Source: Candidatus Parcubacteria bacterium
Lineage (GTDB): Bacteria > Patescibacteriota > Patescibacteriia > UBA1558 > GWA2-36-10
Assembly: GCA_018670855.1 (NCBI GenBank)
Contig: JABHIT010000090.1
Location: 1-11,217 of the forward strand
Direction: 5' to 3'
Length of the DNA stretch: 11,217 nt
Shown here in pieces: positions 518 through 6,572 of this stretch; positions within the stretch are counted from its first letter, which is position 1; every line of letters starts with the position of its first letter. The notes below the pieces were generated by a model. That model had not been told where the DNA came from. It did not search any database and saw only the letters and a program-made list of their open reading frames with translations. The translations under genes were made by a program, and so were the position numbers.

Positions 518-546
518 TTGACAAATAAGAATATTTCTGGTACTAT
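518..546 (+). promoter_or_regulatory. Sigma70-type promoter for typA: TTGACA (518-523), 17-bp spacer, TACTAT (541-546). The predicted TSS is at or near the A of the ATG at 553, so the mRNA would be leaderless.
   Basis: The -35 is an exact consensus and the spacing is 17. The -10 is a 4/6 match. Only 6 nt separate the -10 from the ATG and there is no SD-like purine run. Confidence 0.45.
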
Positions 547-552
547 CTGCGA

Positions 553-2331
553 ATGGAAATAAGAAATATAGCTATTATAGCTCACGTTGATCATGGCAAG
601 ACTGCTTTGACCGACGCAATACTCAAACAAACTGGTATGGTATCAGACGAAAGTGCTACCATGGACTCAAACACGCTTGAAAAAGAGCGTGGTATTACTA
701 TATATTCAAAAAATGCCTCTGTTGATTACAAAGACACAAAGATCAATATAGTAGATACTCCAGGGCATGCTGATTTTGGATCAGAAGTAGAGCGAGTACT
801 CCGCTCTATCGATAGTGTCCTCCTTGTGGTAGATGCCCAAGAAGGTCCAATGCCTCAGACTAGATTTGTTTTGAAAAAATCTCTAGAGCTAGGCCTCAAG
901 CCAATTGTAATTTTGAATAAAATAGACAAGCCGGCCGCCAATCCAAACAAAGCCCACGAACAAGTCTTTGAGCTTTTTATGGACCTCGGTGCTACAGATG
1001 AGCAACTAGATTTTACTACTGTCTATGCTATCGCCAAAAACGGTACAGCCAAAAGATATCTAACAGACGAAGACAAGGACATCTTCCCATTACTCGATAC
1101 AATCCTAGAAAAAGTACCTGTCGCCAAGTCAGATGTAGAAGCGCCATTGCGTTGTCAGGTTTTCAACCTTGCCTATGACAACTTCCTTGGACGTATGGCC
1201 ATCGGTCGTATCTATCAAGGTAGTCTCAAAACTGGCTCAAAGCTTGTAGTCAAAAAGATGGATGGTACAGATGGCTCTGGTCGTATAGCCAAGATGTTTA
1301 CTTTTCATGGACTAGAAAGAAAAGAAACCGAAGAAGCTGTAGCTGGAGATATTGTGATGATTGCTGGATTCCCTGATATTGATATTGGAGAAACTCTGTG
1401 TGTCACTCCCGAACAAGAGGCTTTACCTGCTATCACAGTAGATGAGCCTACTATCTCGTTGGACTTCTTGGTAAACAACTCTCCTCTAGCTGGACGTGAA
1501 GGCAAATATGTCACAAGCAAACAAATCAAAGAAAGACTAGAAAAAGAACTAGAGGTCAATGTCGGAATGAAGATAGATTTTACTGGAGAATTTTTCAAAG
1601 TATATAGTCGTGGTGAATTGCACGCCGCAATATTGATCGAACAGATGCGTCGTGAAGGCTACGAGCTACAAGTATCTCAGCCAAAGGTAATCATCGAAGA
1701 AAGAGAAGGCAAAAAGTTTGAGCCTTTTGAAGAAGTGACTATCGATGTACCAGAAGTGAGCTCAGGTATCGTCATGGAAAAAATGGGCAAACGAAAAGGT
1801 ATCGTCACCTCTATGACTAGTGAAAATGCTCAAATGCGTATAGTGTTTGAAATACCTACTCGTGGTCTACTTGGCTACAGAGGTGAGTTTACTGTAGATA
1901 CTCGTGGTGAAGGTATCCTCTGCGCACACTTTTTGGACTATCGTCCATATACAGGTGAAATCAAAAAGCGCAATGTCGGCTCTATGATCTCCATGGCAAA
2001 CGGCAAGGCTCTAGGATTTTCACTGTTCAACCTCCAAGATCGCGGTGATTTATATATCGGACCAAATGTAGAAGTCTACGAAGGTATGGTAGTCGGCAAT
2101 ACTGCCAAAGGATTTGATATGGTAGTCAATCCAATCAAAGGAAAGCAACTGAGTAATATGCGTAGCTCTGGAGCTGATGAAGCTATCACTCTCACTCCTC
2201 CTACGATTCTGAATATTGAGACAGGGCTGGAGATAATCTCTGAAGATGAATATCTAGAAATCACTCCTGACAATGTCCGTCTCCGCAAACAAGGTCTGAC
2301 AGAAAACGATAGAAAACAAATGCAAAAATAA
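553..2331 (+). CDS. typA: Translational GTPase TypA/BipA, a ribosome-associated EF-G/LepA-like GTPase
   Basis: 592 aa. The N-terminus is [17 protein letters not shown] (G1 AHVDHGKT). DTPGHADF is G3. NKIDK is G4. Overall length and domain order (GTPase, beta-barrel, C-terminal BipA domain) match BipA. Confidence 0.93.
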
Positions 2332-2337
2332 TATATT

Positions 2338-2370
2338 AAAAAGCCACCTCTCTAGGTGGTTTTTTGTTTT
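2338..2370 (+). terminator. Rho-independent terminator after typA
   Basis: Stem CCACCT (2344-2349) / AGGTGG (2354-2359), loop CTCT, then TTTTTTGTTTTG. It is preceded by an A-run. Confidence 0.7.
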
Positions 2371-2381
2371 GTCTAAAGCTA

Positions 2382-2390
2382 TGCTATAAT
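2382..2390 (+). promoter_or_regulatory. Extended -10 promoter (TGcTATAAT) for the small membrane protein gene
   Basis: TG at 2382-2383, TATAAT at 2385-2390, and no clear -35. The ATG is at 2429 and no SD is present. Confidence 0.35.
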
Positions 2391-2428
2391 AACTTTAATT
2401 AAAGATTAAATAACTCTAATATAAAAAT

Positions 2429-2860
2429 ATGCTTATTTTATCATTACTACCTATTGTCCTAGCATTATCAACATTGGTGTTTACTTCTTATTATCTTTTT
2501 AAAAATAAAAAGAAAGAAAATTCTATTGTCCAGGGGATCTTTGGTAAATTTTTCTATTACACCTTTTTTATAATAAACTTATTCCATATATTATCTGTTG
2601 TTAGACTATTTATAGAGTGTGGGTATGGCTCAAGAAGAATGTCTCTGGCCTCTACATTGAGAACCGCTTTTCCAATACTAAAAGAAATTAATTGTGACGG
2701 AAACATAGGCATATCTATATATTATGTTCTTATACTAATAATGTCTATACTATTTAATGTTCTGGTTCTTATGGCTAAAAAATATAACTCAAAAGCTGTA
2801 TTTATCCTAGGAATAATATTGGCTCTCGCTCCCGTTGTTTTATATTTAATTTTTTTATAA
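2429..2860 (+). CDS. Small integral membrane protein, about 4 TM helices, function unknown
   Basis: The 143-aa ORF is dominated by hydrophobic segments: LILSLLPIVLALSTLVFTSYYLF, FFYYTFFIINLFHILSVV, ISIYYVLILIMSILFNVLVLMA and AVFILGIILALAPVVLYLIFL. It has AT-rich host-like composition, its own promoter and terminator, and no recognisable family. Confidence 0.55.
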   Translation: MLILSLLPIVLALSTLVFTSYYLFKNKKKENSIVQGIFGKFFYYTFFIINLFHILSVVRLFIECGYGSRRMSLASTLRTAFPILKEINCDGNIGISIYYVLILIMSILFNVLVLMAKKYNSKAVFILGIILALAPVVLYLIFL

Positions 2861-2869
2861 TAATATATT

Positions 2870-2900
2870 AAAAAGGCCACCCAAATGGGTGGTTTTTTGT
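2870..2900. terminator. Bidirectional rho-independent terminator
   Basis: AAAAA GGCCACCC aaat GGGTGGTT TTTTGTTT. A GC stem is flanked by an A-run and a T-run. Its 3' half (GGTGGTTTTTTGTTT) is identical to the typA terminator. Confidence 0.75.
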
Positions 2901-2903
2901 TTA

Positions 2904-2934
2904 CCCTGTTAGAACTAAAATTTCTAATAGGGTT
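2904..2934. repeat. Palindromic element copy 1: CCCTGTTAGAA-ctaaaat-TTCTAATAGGG followed by TTTT
   Basis: 11-bp inverted repeat with one G.U. It is the left bracket of GC-rich patch A. A near-identical copy lies at 3908-3933. Confidence 0.6.
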
Positions 2935-2937
2935 TTC

Positions 2938-2966
2938 CCAGAAAATGAGCCGACCGTAGTCGGCTC
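2938..2966 (-). terminator. Intrinsic terminator for the minus-strand zinc-ribbon gene
   Basis: On the minus strand: GAGCCGAC tacg GTCGGCTC then AUUUUCU. It lies immediately after the hairpin GGTCTC ccta GAGACC, which contains the TAG stop. Confidence 0.45.
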
Positions 2967-2975
2967 AAGTGGTCT

Positions 2976-3218
2976 CTAGGGAGACCGATCAAAAAGCTTC
3001 TGGCAATTTGGGCATTGCAAGGGCCACTCTTTGATAGCTTGTCCGTTGTCTTGTCGCCAATTTAGCTCGACGTGACATCTTGGACAATGAGATTGGGAGT
3101 ACGTGGCATGTCTAGATGAGGAATACCCACACCTATCACAGCCCGTATACTTGGAGACAAGGACCCTGTCACATCCAGAGCAACAAAGAATCGGCTCGGC
3201 CAAACACAAGTGAGACAT
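2976..3218 (-). CDS. Small zinc-ribbon protein, 80 aa with four CxxC motifs, function unknown
   Basis: ATG at 3218..3216 is preceded by AAGGAG (3230..3225) with a 6-nt spacer. The protein is MSHLCLAEPILCCSGCDRVLVSKYTGCDRCGYSSSRHATYSQSHCPRCHVELNWRQDNGQAIKEWPLQCPNCQKLFDRSP. Its CxxC motifs are at residues 13-16, 27-30, 45-48 and 69-72. The track ORF 2976..3251 uses a TTG inside the predicted 5' UTR. A consensus promoter lies upstream and a terminator downstream. Confidence 0.5.
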   Translation of the reverse strand: MSHLCLAEPILCCSGCDRVLVSKYTGCDRCGYSSSRHATYSQSHCPRCHVELNWRQDNGQAIKEWPLQCPNCQKLFDRSP

Positions 3219-3280
3219 GTCTTTCTCCTTTTTTGGATAAAAAAAGAACAAGGTGTGCCCACCTCGTTTCCGGGAGTCTA

Positions 3281-3309
3281 ATTATATCATTATCAGAAAG
3301 AGTGTCAAA
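3281..3309 (-). promoter_or_regulatory. Sigma70 promoter for the zinc-ribbon gene: TTGACA (3309..3304), 17 bp, TATAAT (3286..3281)
   Basis: Both hexamers are exact consensus at optimal spacing. The TSS is about 3274, giving a 5' UTR of about 56 nt. Confidence 0.5.
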
Positions 3310-3319
3310 TTTATTTATA

Positions 3320-3349
3320 TTGACATACCTACATTATACATGATATAAA
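3320..3349 (+). promoter_or_regulatory. Sigma70 promoter with extended -10 for the 147-aa gene: TTGACA (3320-3325), 18 bp, TG-a-TATAAA (3341-3349)
   Basis: Exact -35. The -10 is TATAAA with the TGn extension. It sits back-to-back with the minus promoter, making a divergent promoter region. Confidence 0.4.
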
Positions 3350-3402
3350 CAATTGTTAGATCATTCCATAACAATAATAATCCTTTTTCCTGGAGGCAAA
3401 AA

Positions 3403-3844
3403 GATGAGTAGACTCAGAGTGTACCCAGAGACCCCCTTTGATCGCGATCAAGTCAATTCCCACGGACAAGCTAGCTACATGATATTTCGTAAGCATGATT
3501 TTCCTACAAATTTTTATGATGAGCGTGATGAGCTAATCAAGGCAGACAGCGATCGTCTCTTGCAATTAGAAAATGCTAATTTTCGAGCTCAGCTAGAAAA
3601 ACACATCGGTTCTGGAGAGATGGCTCTGCCTGGATTTTTTGAACAAGCTAGTGATGAGCAAATTATGGCTTTCCTCAAAGATGCCTTGCAAGCTGATGCA
3701 AAAATTAAGTGGACTGGCTTTCGTATTACAGTTAGTGTTCACAGAGCACATGGTTATATTTTTTTCCACATGACACTCTTTGCCAAACACCCCGATAGCT
3801 CCACAGAGCTGTGCTCAGGCATACCTTGCAGATTATATTTGTGA
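3403..3844 (+). CDS. Hypothetical protein, 147 aa, moderately acidic, no recognised family
   Basis: ATG at 3403 is preceded by GGAGG (3391-3395) with a 7-nt spacer. The track ORF 3353..3844 starts upstream at an ATG with no SD. The protein is MSRLRVYPETPFDRDQVNSHGQASYMIFRKHDF...WTGFRITVSVHRAHGYIFFHMTLFAKHPD.... GC content is elevated relative to the backbone. A strong terminator follows. Confidence 0.55.
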
Positions 3845-3854
3845 CCTTTTATGT

Positions 3855-3905
3855 GGTCTGGAATTCTAGTAGTACAATACTAGGATTCCAGACCTTTTTT
3901 ATTTT
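3855..3905 (+). terminator. Strong rho-independent terminator
   Basis: 17-bp stem GGTCTGGAATTCTAGTA / TACTAGGATTCCAGACC (one G.U), loop GTACAA, then TTTTTTATTTT. Confidence 0.85.
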
Positions 3906-3907
3906 GT

Positions 3908-3933
3908 CCCGTTAGAAAAAATTTTCTAACGGG
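3908..3933. repeat. Palindromic element copy 2: CCCGTTAGAAAAAA-TTTTCTAACGGG followed by TTTT
   Basis: Near-perfect palindrome sharing the CCC-GTTAGAA / TTCTAAC-GGG arms with copy 1 (2904-2934). It is the right bracket of patch A. Confidence 0.6.
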
Positions 3934-3974
3934 ATTTTGACTTTATGATGATAAAATGAGAGAATTTGTTTATT

Positions 3975-5207
3975 ATGATATATGATTTGATAGTAATAGG
4001 TGGCGGACCAGCTGGTATCATGGCCGCAGGACAAGCAGCATCCAAAGGTGCCAAAGTTTTGCTTTTGGAAAAAAATAATCGACTAGGTATAAAGCTAGTG
4101 ATTACTGGCAAAGGTAGGTGCAATATCACCAATGCTGAGTTTGATACAAAAAACTTGGTAGAAAAGTTTGGCAAAAAAGGACGCTTTCTTTTTTATGCTT
4201 TGAGCACTTATACAAACAAAGATATTATTGATTTTTTTGAAAGCCGAAAACTGCCCACCAAAGTAGAAAGAGGCAATCGTGTTTTTCCGGTCAGTGATTC
4301 ATCTCTTGATGTCTTGGATATCCTCACAGACTATTTGGCAAAAAACAAAGTAGAAGTCAGAAAAAACATCCAAGTCAAATCTATCGTCACCAAAGACAAA
4401 GAAATAGAAAAAATAGTTTTACAAGACAAGACCGAGCTAAAAGCCAAAAAATACCTCATCGCCACTGGAGGCAAATCCTACCCTATGACTGGCTCTAGCG
4501 GAGATGGCTACAAGTGGCTCCAAAAAATGGGACACACCATAGTAGATACGATCCCCAGCCTGACTCCCCTGTTTATCAAAGAATCTTTTATCAAAGAGCT
4601 AGAGGGCCTGAGCCTCAAAAACGTAAGTATCAATATTTATCAAAACAACAAAAAGATAGATTCGCGTTTTGGTGAAGCTTTGTTTACTGCCAATGGCTTG
4701 AGTGGCCCGATCATACTCGATATGAGTAAAAATATAGGTATAGCTCTCAAAAATGGCCCCGTAAAACTATCCATTGATTACAAACCGAGTCTAGACTTCA
4801 AGACTTTGGACAAACGTGTTCAGGGTGATTTTGAAAAAACAGCCAATAAACAATTCAAGAACAGCCTCGGCGATTTATTGCCCCGCAAACTGATTCCTTT
4901 GATTATAGAACTTTCTGATATTGATCCTGACAAAAAAACTGGCGACATCAACAAAGAAGAAAGAAAAAAACTTTTGCATTTACTCAAAAACTTTGAACTA
5001 AATATCAAATCTTTACACGGCTTTAACAAAGCTATTGTCACAGCCGGTGGAGTCCACCTCAAAGAAGTAGACCCCAAAACTATGCAATCCAAAATCATAA
5101 AAAATCTCTACCTAGCTGGAGAGGTTTTGGATCTAGACGGTCCGACCGGTGGCTACAACCTACAATCATGTTGGAGTACAGGATATGTAGCTGGCTCAAA
5201 TATATAA
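3975..5207 (+). CDS. HI0933/YhiN-family FAD-dependent flavoprotein (BaiN-like NAD(P)/FAD-binding oxidoreductase)
   Basis: N-terminus MIYDLIVIGGGPAGIMAAGQAA is a GxGxxG FAD-binding Rossmann motif. ITGKGRCNITN and the C-terminal VTAGGV...GEVLDLDGPTGGYNLQSCWSTGYVAG are typical of the HI0933 family. The track start 3966 is a TTG. The ATG at 3975 gives the canonical N-terminus. No SD. Confidence 0.85.
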   Translation: MIYDLIVIGGGPAGIMAAGQAASKGAKVLLLEKNNRLGIKLVITGKGRCNITNAEFDTKNLVEKFGKKGRFLFYALSTYTNKDIIDFFESRKLPTKVERGNRVFPVSDSSLDVLDILTDYLAKNKVEVRKNIQVKSIVTKDKEIEKIVLQDKTELKAKKYLIATGGKSYPMTGSSGDGYKWLQKMGHTIVDTIPSLTPLFIKESFIKELEGLSLKNVSINIYQNNKKIDSRFGEALFTANGLSGPIILDMSKNIGIALKNGPVKLSIDYKPSLDFKTLDKRVQGDFEKTANKQFKNSLGDLLPRKLIPLIIELSDIDPDKKTGDINKEERKKLLHLLKNFELNIKSLHGFNKAIVTAGGVHLKEVDPKTMQSKIIKNLYLAGEVLDLDGPTGGYNLQSCWSTGYVAGSNI

Positions 5208-5227
5208 TTTTATTTAAACAAAATATT

Positions 5228-6019
5228 ATGCAAAAAACAATATTTATTACTGGCTCTGGTAGTGGCTTTGGCTATGATACTGCCGTAGCTCTAGCTCGAC
5301 GTGGCCACAAAGTGATTGCTACTACTCATACTACAGACTCTGCCAATGAGCTCAACTCTTTTGCCAAAAAAAATAATCTAAACATAGAATCATTCAAACT
5401 AGATGTCACCGTACCAGAAGACAGACAAAAAATACTAAAGCATGACATAGACGTCTTACTCAACAATGCGGGCACTGGTCAATCTGGTTCGTTGGCCGAA
5501 ATACCTCTGGACAAAATCCGACATGACTTTGAGGTCAATGTCTTTGGCTCTATCGCTCTAGCTCAGCTGGCATTACAAAAAATGATGCCTCGAGATAGCG
5601 GGACTGTGATTTTTGTCAGCTCTCTAGCTGGTAGAGTGCCTATGCCATTTTTGAGTTCATACTCTATGACCAAGTTTGCTTTGTCTGGTGGTATCGATGC
5701 TATGCGTAGAGAGATAAAAAAAATCACCAAAAATGTCCACGTAGCTTTGATAGAGCCAGGTGCCTATCATACTGGATTCAACCAAAAAAATATCGCCAAA
5801 AAATATACTTGGATGGACGAGAAATCATATTTTTGGAAAATAAAAGATGATCTCAAAATAGAAGAAGAAAAATATTTCAAAATGATGGAGCTCAAATCTA
5901 CAAAGAGCATGGTCACTCAAATAGTCAAAGCTTGCGAAGCCAGTAGACCAAAGCTAAGGTACACCGCTCCGTGGTGGCAGGCTGTCGGCGTACAAGTGAT
6001 GAGAATATTTGGAAAATAA
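5228..6019 (+). CDS. Short-chain dehydrogenase/reductase (SDR) family oxidoreductase
   Basis: MQKTIFITGSGSGFGYDTAVALARRGHKV is the TGxxxGxG cofactor motif. NNAG is present. The SDR catalytic region has S (VSSLAG) and YxxxK (YSMTK). The track ORF 5168 starts earlier. ATG 5228 gives the standard SDR N-terminus. No SD. Confidence 0.85.
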   Translation: MQKTIFITGSGSGFGYDTAVALARRGHKVIATTHTTDSANELNSFAKKNNLNIESFKLDVTVPEDRQKILKHDIDVLLNNAGTGQSGSLAEIPLDKIRHDFEVNVFGSIALAQLALQKMMPRDSGTVIFVSSLAGRVPMPFLSSYSMTKFALSGGIDAMRREIKKITKNVHVALIEPGAYHTGFNQKNIAKKYTWMDEKSYFWKIKDDLKIEEEKYFKMMELKSTKSMVTQIVKACEASRPKLRYTAPWWQAVGVQVMRIFGK

Positions 6020-6022
6020 AGA

Positions 6023-6050
6023 AAGACCAAGGTTGAAAAACCTTGGTCTT
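6023..6050. terminator. Hairpin terminator between the convergent SDR and peptide genes. The T-run is on the minus side.
   Basis: 10-bp stem AAGACCAAGG / CCTTGGTCTT with loop TTGAAAAA. The minus-strand reading is followed by TCTTTATTTTCC. The plus side lacks a U-tract. Confidence 0.5.
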
Positions 6051-6074
6051 GAAAAATGTGATTGATGACTTTAT

Positions 6075-6203
6075 CTAGCCAAATATCCCGCCATCGGGAT
6101 CACCTTCTACAAATCCACCTGTCGGATCACCAGTGCTACGGAGGACACCTCCGTCTGGGTCACCAAAGAAACCAGCCAAGATACAAAACAATGCGATCAT
6201 CAT
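6075..6203 (-). CDS. 42-aa peptide with a hydrophobic N-terminus and three GDP(D/T)GG repeats: MMIALFCILAGFFGDPDGGVLRSTGDPTGGFVEGDPDGGIFG
   Basis: ATG ATG at 6203..6198 is preceded by GGAG with a 7-nt spacer. A TTGACT-16-TATAAT promoter lies upstream and a hairpin terminator downstream. The DNA shows three GGRTCACC repeats at about 6096, 6124 and 6160. GC-rich like the MVP gene. The longer track ORF 6075..6296 would start inside the promoter. Confidence 0.4.
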   Translation of the reverse strand: MMIALFCILAGFFGDPDGGVLRSTGDPTGGFVEGDPDGGIFG

Positions 6204-6284
6204 CTTACTACTCCTTTTGGGACAGTGTTTGTGGCCGGGATCTGTCTGTGGTACAAACCATGATAAGAACATAAATATATTTAT

Positions 6285-6312
6285 ATTATACAACAAGGTT
6301 TCCGGCAGTCAA
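6285..6312 (-). promoter_or_regulatory. Sigma70 promoter for the peptide gene: TTGACT (6312..6307), 16 bp, TATAAT (6290..6285)
   Basis: Near-consensus hexamers at good spacing. The TSS is about 6278 and the leader to the ATG at 6203 is about 75 nt. Confidence 0.4.
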
Positions 6313-6348
6313 GCAAAGCTTTGGATGCTTTTTTTATAGCTCAAAATC

Positions 6349-6357
6349 TGCTATAAT
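6349..6357 (+). promoter_or_regulatory. Extended -10 promoter TGcTATAAT, the same 9-mer as at 2382-2390, reading into an ORF-poor region
   Basis: TG at 6349-6350 and TATAAT at 6352-6357. About 210 nt downstream is the bidirectional terminator at 6573-6604. Confidence 0.3.
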
Positions 6358-6377
6358 GAAAAACGTAACATTTACCC

Positions 6378-6551
6378 ATGCTTAAACCATTTCTAAAAAA
6401 CAAAATAATAGCCAAAAAAGCTACTCTAGCCCAAGAGAAAAAAGTAGTAAAAGTAGCTATACTAACCCTAGAATGTTTTTATTTACCCTTGATGTGGCCA
6501 GAAAATATGCGCAAATCTATAGAAATACTGTTTAATCGAGATATAGTTTAG
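6378..6551 (+). CDS. Possible 57-aa lysine-rich small protein: MLKPFLKNKIIAKKATLAQEKKVVKVAILTLECFYLPLMWPENMRKSIEILFNRDIV. The locus could instead be a small RNA.
   Basis: The ATG is 21 nt downstream of the -10, and the leader is short and SD-less like other host genes. A TAG stop at 6549-6551 is followed by the terminator. AT-rich host-like composition. Below the track size cut-off. There is no family evidence. Confidence 0.25.
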   Translation: MLKPFLKNKIIAKKATLAQEKKVVKVAILTLECFYLPLMWPENMRKSIEILFNRDIV

Positions 6552-6572
6552 ATTTTATACAAAAATAATAAA

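Follow-up and report, generated by a model that had tools for sequence, protein, structure and literature searches.

This study concerns a 42-amino-acid peptide encoded on the minus strand of an 11,217-nucleotide (nt) stretch of DNA (contig JABHIT010000090.1, hereafter the window) that protein matches assign to an uncultured Candidatus Parcubacteria bacterium of the Candidate Phyla Radiation (CPR). Our main conclusion, which we hold to be probable though by no means secure, is that positions 6312..6013 (-) constitute a stand-alone cassette encoding a genuine small protein that may associate with membranes and may be controlled through its leader. The conserved unit is a cassette of about 290 nt that comprises promoter, leader, open reading frame (ORF), and terminator. 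The peptide belongs to a small-protein family that has no name and only two detectable members, each of them from uncultured Candidatus Parcubacteria. An earlier interpretation made without any database searches (below, the sequence-only reading) had linked the peptide gene to a nearby gene resembling the one for major vault protein (MVP), but we find that it is transcriptionally and evolutionarily independent of this MVP-like gene.

The translation of the ORF at 6203..6075 (-), MMIALFCILAGFFGDPDGGVLRSTGDPTGGFVEGDPDGGIFG, was compared to 1.84 billion representative protein sequences in an exhaustive phmmer search, which yielded a sole relative of the same size, P0128 (MLAFLFFIMAGLFGDPDGGLILPGDPTGGFGKTEGDPDGGMFG; 43 amino acids, 71% identical, E = 3e-07); the protein space behind this single-homolog result amounts to about 15 billion proteins. 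P0128 also comes from a Candidatus Parcubacteria bacterium. A word-indexed search of 5.8 billion clusters returned only the public annotation of the ORF itself, a “hypothetical protein” of 65 amino acids found on 21 near-identical contigs. The peptide and P0128 have in common an apolar N-terminus ending in AG[FL]FG, the three motifs GDPDGG, GDPTGG, and GDPDGG in this order, and a final [I/M]FG followed directly by the stop codon. Searches of Pfam, NCBIfam, PHROGs, PADLOC, and the sequences of the Protein Data Bank (PDB) gave no match for the peptide or its leader.

At the DNA level, comparison of the window gene with the P0128 gene (locus L012) reveals a clear coding signature. The start codon, the stop codon, and the 7-nt spacing of the Shine-Dalgarno (SD) sequence are the same in both genes, and the indels between the two coding sequences are 3 and 6 nt long. 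Among the codons, 18 are identical, 12 differ only synonymously, and 12 change the amino acid, with 8, 6, and 20 nucleotide differences at codon positions 1, 2, and 3, respectively (pS 0.57, pN 0.19, dN/dS 0.20). A similar picture emerges from within the window gene, where the three 18-nt repeat units that encode the GDP motifs have 1, 1, and 5 variable columns at the three codon positions, or 0, 0, and 4 if the Asp/Thr codon is set aside (hypergeometric P = 0.004). Since nearly all differences between the repeat copies of either gene fall on third codon positions, it is at the level of amino acids and not of DNA that the repeats are maintained. The peptide gene is thus, as far as this comparison can tell, under purifying selection as a protein, and we regard the evidence for selection on the peptide as solid.

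This coding signature, together with the breakage of the other frames in L012, implies that the gene is real, lies in the minus-strand frame, and starts at the ATG behind the AGGAG motif. Two plus-strand ORFs (6062..6274 and 6133..6339) were ruled out, with antisense frames in L012 reaching at most 23 amino acids, and so were upstream-extended versions of the gene with 65 codons (the public annotation) or 73 codons since a 1-nt indel in the leader breaks their frame in L012. The sequence-only reading had proposed a genuine, independently expressed small peptide gene on the minus strand and had named the plus-strand frame 6062..6274 as the alternative; the first of these views is borne out by the frame, start, stop, and SD spacing kept in P0128 at a dN/dS of 0.20, and the alternative frame is not conserved in L012. 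Single-nucleotide polymorphisms across 10 near-identical contigs contribute little, as none fall into 6020..6312 and the variation is too sparse and too clustered to be telling.

The individual parts of the cassette are listed in Table 1 together with the other features of the window. The near-consensus promoter (TTGACT-16-TATAAT), the SD sequence, the hairpin terminator, and the three GGRTCACC repeats that had been described from the letters alone were all found. The -10 region, TGTATAATATA, is the same in the window and in the homologous module of L012, and the homology of the two modules starts at about the -35. Identity between the two loci rises from 37% upstream of the -35 over 61% between -35 and -10 to 74% across the whole leader and 88% in the last 41 nt before the ATG; it amounts to 68% in the coding sequence and 44% beyond about 25 nt past the stop codon. 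The terminator hairpin consists of a perfect 12-bp stem and a 4-nt loop followed by a TCTTTATTTT tail, and because this T-tract is found on the minus strand only, the hairpin (6050..6023) is assigned to the peptide gene; it lies 4 nt past the stop codon of the convergent short-chain dehydrogenase (SDR) gene (5168..6019, +). The L012 module closes with its own GC-rich terminator of 10 bp. The GGRTCACC octamer is present in three copies (6097, 6124, and 6157) and nowhere else in the window, well above the 0.33 copies expected by chance (none of 200 shuffles reached three), and its copies correspond, in antisense, to the GGT-GAY-CC codons in the three GDP motifs.

Table 1. Features of the window, with the parts of the peptide cassette listed first (coordinates as positions in the window).
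Feature	Coordinates	Strand	Remarks
Sigma-70-type promoter	6285..6312	-	-35 TTGACT 6312..6307, -10 TATAAT 6290..6285, 16-nt spacer; 11/12 consensus positions
5' leader, ~75 nt	6204..6278	-	Predicted transcription start
Conserved noncoding leader core, 41 nt before ATG	6204..6244	-	AGATCCCGGCCACAAACNCTGT(C)CCAAAAGGAG
Shine-Dalgarno AGGAG	6211..6215	-	7 nt upstream of ATG; sequence and spacing identical in L012
Small protein gene (small ORF, 42-amino-acid peptide)	6203..6075	-	42 codons and TAG stop; homolog P0128 71% identical
Repeat 1, GDPDGG	6147..6164	-	GGT GAC CCA GAC GGA GGT
Repeat 2, GDPTGG	6114..6131	-	GGT GAT CCG ACA GGT GGA; middle Thr kept in P0128
Repeat 3, GDPDGG	6087..6104	-	GGT GAT CCC GAT GGC GGG; followed by conserved C-terminal [I/M]FG and stop
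Intrinsic terminator of peptide gene	6013..6050	-	Stem-loop 6050..6023, T-tract 6022..6013
Strain-variable block, ~3.9 kb	2392..6321	.	Peptide gene at one edge; also 143-amino-acid, 163-amino-acid, HI0933-like flavoprotein, and SDR genes; absent in L010
typA	553..2331	+	
143-amino-acid ORF (membrane protein)	2429..2860	+	
163-amino-acid ORF	3353..3844	+	
HI0933-like flavoprotein	3966..5207	+	
Short-chain dehydrogenase (SDR)	5168..6019	+	
57-amino-acid ORF	6378..6551	+	
MVP homolog	9502..6629	-	Pfam MVP_shoulder 2e-23, Vault_3 3e-10
PMT_2-like membrane protein	from 11168	-	

Across the examined gene starts of the window, a canonical AGGAG is seen only before the peptide gene. No recognizable SD sequence precedes the starts at 553, 2429, 3353, 3975, 5228, and 6378, and the start of the MVP gene displays only a partial GTGAGG.

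The most strongly conserved part of the cassette is the leader core, which is the same as in L012 at 36 of 41 positions (88%), compared to a difference of 57% at synonymous sites. Its conservation is at the nucleotide level because a 1-nt indel inside the core shifts the frame relative to the ATG in L012. Given that this SD-proximal segment of 41 nt is far more conserved than synonymous sites, we infer that it would control translation or the fate of the messenger RNA (mRNA), an effect that might be exerted via a protein or RNA partner and not via a stable intrinsic fold. One 7-bp pairing between CCGGCCA of the leader and codons 9–11 (UGGCUGG) is seen in both predicted folds, and both of its arms are identical in the two sequences. 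Neither the leader nor the transcript matched any family of Rfam 15 at gathering score, also in a permissive run (best E at least 0.18, to unrelated families), and no conserved antisense promoter or terminator overlaps the leader or mRNA in the window and L012.

Since conservation in the module is highest in a noncoding stretch, its functional product could also be an RNA, either a small regulatory or a dual-function one, and the ORF would then be incidental or secondary. Such a reading would fit a short transcript (predicted at about 255 nt) bounded by promoter and terminator, and the whole-transcript fold is indeed more stable than shuffled sequences, with z-scores of -2.4 (window) and -2.0 (L012). 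Yet these z-scores stem largely from the terminator hairpin while the leader alone is unstructured, no Rfam family is matched, and an incidental ORF is at odds with the coding signature of the gene (dN/dS of 0.20, indels in multiples of three, a conserved SD whose spacing is optimal, and conserved start and stop). We therefore consider an RNA product to be very unlikely.

The protein encoded by the cassette is composed of two dissimilar parts. Residues 1–13 are uniformly apolar, with Kyte-Doolittle means of +2.65 for the window peptide and +2.62 for P0128, and the N-terminal substitutions between the two exchange hydrophobic residues for hydrophobic ones. Residues 14–42 are acidic and form a tail made up of Gly, Asp, or Pro to 62–67% (62% in the window), and the net charge of the whole peptide is -5 in both homologs. 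As stated in the sequence-only reading, the hydrophobic N-terminus comes without a basic n-region: the two proteins start with MM or ML and have no Lys or Arg before residue 22. They also have no lipobox, and the sole cysteine of the window peptide (Cys7) is without lipobox context and is replaced by Phe in P0128. A Sec signal peptide or lipoprotein was rejected for both homologs because they have neither basic n-region nor lipobox.

When modeled by AlphaFold2 from the alignment of the two sequences, the peptide forms a helix at residues 2–14 with a predicted local distance difference test (pLDDT) value of about 71, and nothing is confident elsewhere. Asp-Pro-Asp-Gly and Asp-Pro-x-Gly are classic formers of type I beta-turns, and the reading that suits the tail best is a series of three turns spaced by short hydrophobic pairs. 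We accordingly propose a working model in which the apolar N-terminal helix of 13 residues would associate with or insert into a membrane and present the acidic tail of three Asp-Pro-(Asp/Thr)-Gly-Gly beta-turns with short hydrophobic pairs between them. The protein could then act as a small accessory peptide of the envelope or as a membrane-active one.

Several points weigh against this interpretation of the cassette and its product. The family consists of two sequence variants only, so that every conservation statistic derives from a single pairwise comparison. The leader folds no better than shuffled sequences (z of +0.06 and +1.25, or -0.11 and -0.90 if the 5' part of the coding sequence is included). 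The structure model of the peptide is of low confidence overall (mean pLDDT 56), and its apolar stretch of 13 residues is short for a membrane-spanning helix, which at full length takes about 18 residues or more. Finally, residues 10–32 resemble the beta-strand-turn-strand of a propeller-like repeat (89% in hhalign; see below), which would make the N-terminus a strand.

A small peptide with a repeat core might also be the precursor of a secreted or modified product such as a bacteriocin, a ribosomally synthesized and post-translationally modified peptide, or a pheromone. Its size, the possible cleavage sites at the GG motifs, and the accessory location of the gene would all be suitable, and in the window it adjoins an SDR and an HI0933-like flavoprotein, both of them oxidoreductases. 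But no neighbor is common to both loci, neither of them encodes a C39-peptidase or ABC transporter, radical-SAM enzyme, cyclodehydratase, or lanthipeptide enzyme, and the N-terminus has neither the basic n-region of Sec substrates nor a leader of the LSxxELxxIxGG type. A precursor of this kind thus seems highly improbable.

Another alternative is a type I toxin-antitoxin-like module, in which the peptide would be the membrane-damaging toxin of a selfish accessory cassette and its translation would be kept in check, via the conserved leader, by an antisense or trans-acting small RNA. The mRNAs of type I toxins typically have conserved regulatory leaders, as known for the Hok, Fst, TisB, ZorO, and AapA families. 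Like Hok, Fst, Ldr, TisB, ZorO, and AapA-type toxins, the peptide is shorter than 60 amino acids, has an apolar N-terminus, and is encoded by a stand-alone gene with near-consensus promoter and own terminator; a long leader precedes it, in which conservation near the SD sequence exceeds that of the coding sequence; and the distribution of the cassette is patchy, limited to variable regions of two genomes. What sets it apart is, first, that the module contains no conserved antisense promoter or terminator and that no conserved divergent small RNA was recognized either. The sole promoter-like site shared on the reverse strand (window 6260..6289, L012 5131..5103) fires away from the mRNA into DNA that is unrelated between the two loci. 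Second, the folding of the leader is not above shuffles and does not stably sequester the SD sequence. Third, the apolar stretch is only 13 residues long, the acidic tail of Gly/Pro-rich repeats and turns is unlike known type I toxins, and there is no sequence similarity to any known toxin family and no match in Rfam or PADLOC. In view of these differences, we judge a toxin function to be unlikely and favor the small accessory protein described above.

Beyond P0128, the remaining phmmer matches of the peptide are large repeat proteins that fall into two types, one of them related to cadherin-like, He_PIG, and Big_9 domains and the other characterized by an uncharacterized repeat of 48 residues. 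Proteins of the first type carry FSDPDGD, an instance of the FxDPDGD calcium motif, and their summed E-values of down to 1e-11 arise because these large proteins repeat the motif many times. The sequence-only reading had likened the Gly/Asp/Pro repeats of the peptide to short metal- or calcium-binding turns. This resemblance holds in part, as the peptide shares the local F-x-D-P-D-G string with the cadherin-like, He_PIG, and Big_9 immunoglobulin-like domains of P0122–P0126 and P0134, but the peptide has Gly in place of the third acidic residue, Thr in its middle repeat, and no surrounding immunoglobulin-like domain. A DxDxD or FxDPDGD calcium motif was therefore ruled out for both homologs, whose repeats read DPDGG, DPTGG, and DPDGG; the window peptide has no Pfam domain.

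Proteins of the second type (P0129, P0131, P0135, P0137, and P0139) contain the repeat SVSEGRxTPGAPVTAVPWGxRIALFLADPNGGVYTTGGDPQGGFGPWA, which has no match in Pfam or among PDB sequences. Their phmmer matches cover residues 9–31 of the peptide, and an hhalign comparison of the two-peptide alignment with 16 repeat units aligns residues 10–32 (AGFFGDPDGGVLRSTGDPTGGF) with repeat positions 23–46 (ALFVADPNGGVYTTGGDPQGGFGP) at a probability of 89% (23 columns, 57% identical). Within P0139, the only one of these proteins to be modeled, this part of the repeat is built from a strand (RIALFLA), a turn (DPNG), another strand (GVYGTG), and a loop (GDPQGGF). The model is all-beta in its repeats, and its best fold matches are the fucose-binding propeller lectins SapL1, PLL2, RSL, and AAL. 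The peptide could thus be a free-standing fragment of a propeller-lectin-like blade that forms a beta-hairpin or meander and assembles into homo-oligomers. Against this view, the match is short, compositionally biased toward Gly, Asp, and Pro, and a post hoc pick from 1.8 billion proteins. The peptide covers only about half of a complete blade of about 45–48 residues and four strands, lacks the SVSEG...PVTAVPW part and the conserved Trp residues, and has a third DPDGG turn instead. Unlike the blades, the peptide is a free protein of 42 amino acids whose own AlphaFold2 model has a helix at the N-terminus, disorder after it, and no strands; the P0139 model is itself of low confidence (pLDDT 47 overall and 55–77 in the repeats), and neither the peptide nor P0139 has a match in PDB or Pfam. 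We consider a blade fragment to be quite improbable, and its fuller version, a natural free-standing blade piece with a hydrophobic strand and three DPxGG turns that forms a beta-rich homo-oligomer and is carried as a mobile cassette in genome-reduced Parcubacteria, to be a long shot. If it were true, few naturally encoded building blocks of repeat folds would be as small as this peptide.

The most far-reaching proposal of the sequence-only reading was that the peptide gene had been acquired together with the MVP-like gene and that the peptide could be a partner, cargo, or tether of a vault-like particle. Three observations speak for such a link: the two genes are on the same strand, they are 425 nt apart (from the MVP stop at 6629 to the peptide ATG at 6203), and both have an overall guanine-plus-cytosine (GC) content of 0.50. 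A tblastn similarity between the peptide and a Gly/Asp-rich part of MVP is weak and adds little since its E-value of 0.27 is at chance level. The description of the peptide gene as “directly downstream” of and co-oriented with the MVP gene is correct as to the strand but not as to adjacency, because the 425-nt gap holds an opposite-strand gene for a 57-amino-acid protein (6378..6551) and a 13-bp bidirectional terminator (6570..6599). This intervening gene is conserved, with a counterpart of equal length and 71% identity in locus L010.

Locus L010 also encodes the closest relative of the MVP homolog (P0003, 70% identity), in the order MVP -> 57-amino-acid gene <- typA. The DNA of L010 aligns to positions 518..2391 and 6322..8768 of the window and to nothing between, so that the entire block 2392..6321 with the peptide gene and its promoter is missing and marks an insertion or deletion between the two. 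The next relative of the MVP gene (locus L011, 57% identity) is followed by genes for proteins of 152 and 547 amino acids, and the neighbors of three further MVP genes in CPR genomes are unrelated to those of the window MVP. Across all seven MVP loci examined (L010, L011, and L035–L039, from five lineages), the peptide had no tblastn match below E = 0.39 and no DP.GG motif was found in any of the six frames; the sequence-only reading had proposed looking for the peptide next to MVP homologs, and in these loci it is absent. Conversely, no MVP gene and no SDR gene were found around P0128 in the 7.2 kb examined (loci L012–L015).

The composition of the gene does not support a common origin with the MVP gene either. 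The small ORF is as GC-rich as claimed (0.504 overall; MVP gene 0.502, whole window 0.404), but the richness is located at codon positions 1 and 2. By codon position, its GC content is 0.605 (GC1), 0.488 (GC2), and 0.419 (GC3), and this ordinary GC3 falls between 0.38 (SDR gene) and 0.475 (MVP gene), with 43 codons being too few to discriminate. The homologous ORF in L012 has a GC3 of only 0.295 at a GC1 of 0.59 and within a locus of 0.40 overall GC, so that it is the codons for Gly, Asp, and Pro that account for the high GC content, not shared ancestry with the MVP gene. With GC content driven by amino-acid content, the composition argument for co-acquisition fails. The known partners of eukaryotic vaults, PARP4 and TEP1 (via the INT domain) as well as vault RNA, offer no better precedent: the only likeness is the position of the peptide gene 425 nt from an MVP homolog on the same strand in one genome, whereas 42 amino acids are too few for an INT-like domain, there is no conserved synteny with bacterial MVP, and a gene and a terminator intervene. 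Neither co-acquisition nor a role as partner, cargo, or tether is borne out by these data, and we regard an MVP link as all but untenable.

Better MVP-linked candidates than the peptide are the conserved convergent 57-amino-acid gene and the genes for the 549-amino-acid PMT_2-like and 152-amino-acid proteins. The 57-amino-acid ORF (window 6378..6551, +; L010 5859..6032, -) runs convergently to the MVP gene, has the bidirectional terminator 6570..6599 in common with it, and is the true small neighbor of MVP in the window and L010; it has no family match and was not found in L011 or the other MVP loci examined. A membrane protein of about 549 amino acids with weak glycosyltransferase-like matches to PMT_2 and PTPS_related adjoins the MVP gene in all three loci (window 9735..11217, -; L010 627..2744; L011 3885..5991), and in L010 and L011 it is accompanied by the 152-amino-acid protein, with the order relative to MVP differing in L011. 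The MVP genes of these loci (window 6629..9502, L010 2991..5777, and L011 955..3777) have a GC content of 0.50–0.53 compared to 0.31–0.42 for the other measured genes on their contigs, an oddity that is a stable trait of the gene in this lineage because it is seen in all three related Parcubacteria. The MVP protein of the window also has an acidic, low-complexity insert at about residues 175–245.

Instead of following the MVP gene, the peptide cassette is associated with variable parts of the genome. In the window, homology to L010 restarts at 6322, just outside the peptide promoter, and the two ends of the block that L010 lacks (2343..2385 and 6313..6357) each bear a terminator hairpin and a copy of the promoter sequence TGCTATAAT. 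The block looks as if it had been inserted between the terminator of typA and the promoter of the 57-amino-acid gene. In the second genome, another Candidatus Parcubacteria bacterium according to its CTP synthase cluster, the order of genes is CTP synthase, 214-amino-acid ORF, 124-amino-acid ORF, peptide, tRNA-Gln, and HD protein (L012–L015). The loci L018–L024 are close relatives of L012, with CTP synthases in the same 90% cluster, but are devoid of the cassette. In the two that were aligned (L019 and L023), the backbone DNA is about 80–82% identical to L012 and the interval is filled with other genes; homology between L012 and L019 restarts at position 5372 of L012, right after the peptide terminator. 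The neighbor genes of the two cassettes in the window and L012 share no homology. In both genomes, the cassette thus resides at the margin of a segment that is missing from the nearest relatives or occupied by other genes in them.

CPR members depend on host cells, and to our knowledge their small accessory peptides are almost unexplored. It is plausible that a membrane-active or surface peptide encoded in a variable region is a player in the interaction with hosts or competitors. We nevertheless view the significance of a two-member, Parcubacteria-restricted family with a conserved leader as modest and not as a major finding. Its value is that it describes a family of small proteins, which public records carry either as a 65-amino-acid hypothetical protein whose start is not conserved or without a name, and that it removes a tempting but wrong lead on bacterial vault-like particles.

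Scans of large nucleotide collections did not extend the family. A metagenome scan with short back-translated two-peptide patterns confirmed only the window's own contig among the matches listed and has no bearing on absence, a genome-collection scan with a 22-nt leader pattern gave 0 matches, and so did scans of viral contigs with two peptide patterns. A leader 16-mer had 10 matches on viral contigs that we attribute to chance because no extended similarity surrounds them. The C-terminal peptide pattern had one match in the genome collection, which was rejected as a chance hit in a repeat array of a Verrucomicrobia metagenome-assembled genome; this array (L017 4633..5173, JACQWK010000573.1) consists of GC-rich repeated units, resembles an array of clustered regularly interspaced short palindromic repeats (CRISPR), and is unrelated to the peptide.

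Some further observations concern the variable regions themselves. Downstream of typA, the window contains a direct repeat of 44 nt (2327..2369 and 2859..2902, 86% identical) that includes the typA terminator hairpin and whose copies flank the ORF of the 143-amino-acid membrane protein, which suggests stepwise insertion of cassettes at this site. In close Parcubacteria, a hotspot of variation lies between CTP synthase and tRNA-Gln (L012 3869..5371, L019 6741..8610, and L023 6738..6823). It is occupied by the 214- and 124-amino-acid ORFs together with the peptide gene in L012, by a SAICAR-synthase/AIRC fusion and a 91-amino-acid ORF in L018–L020, and by an inverted tRNA-Gln and a 385-amino-acid ORF in L023 and L024. 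Next to this hotspot, a called “HAD hydrolase” of 229 amino acids (L012 5445..6134, +) begins inside tRNA-Gln (5431..5504), and its annotated start is therefore probably too far upstream.

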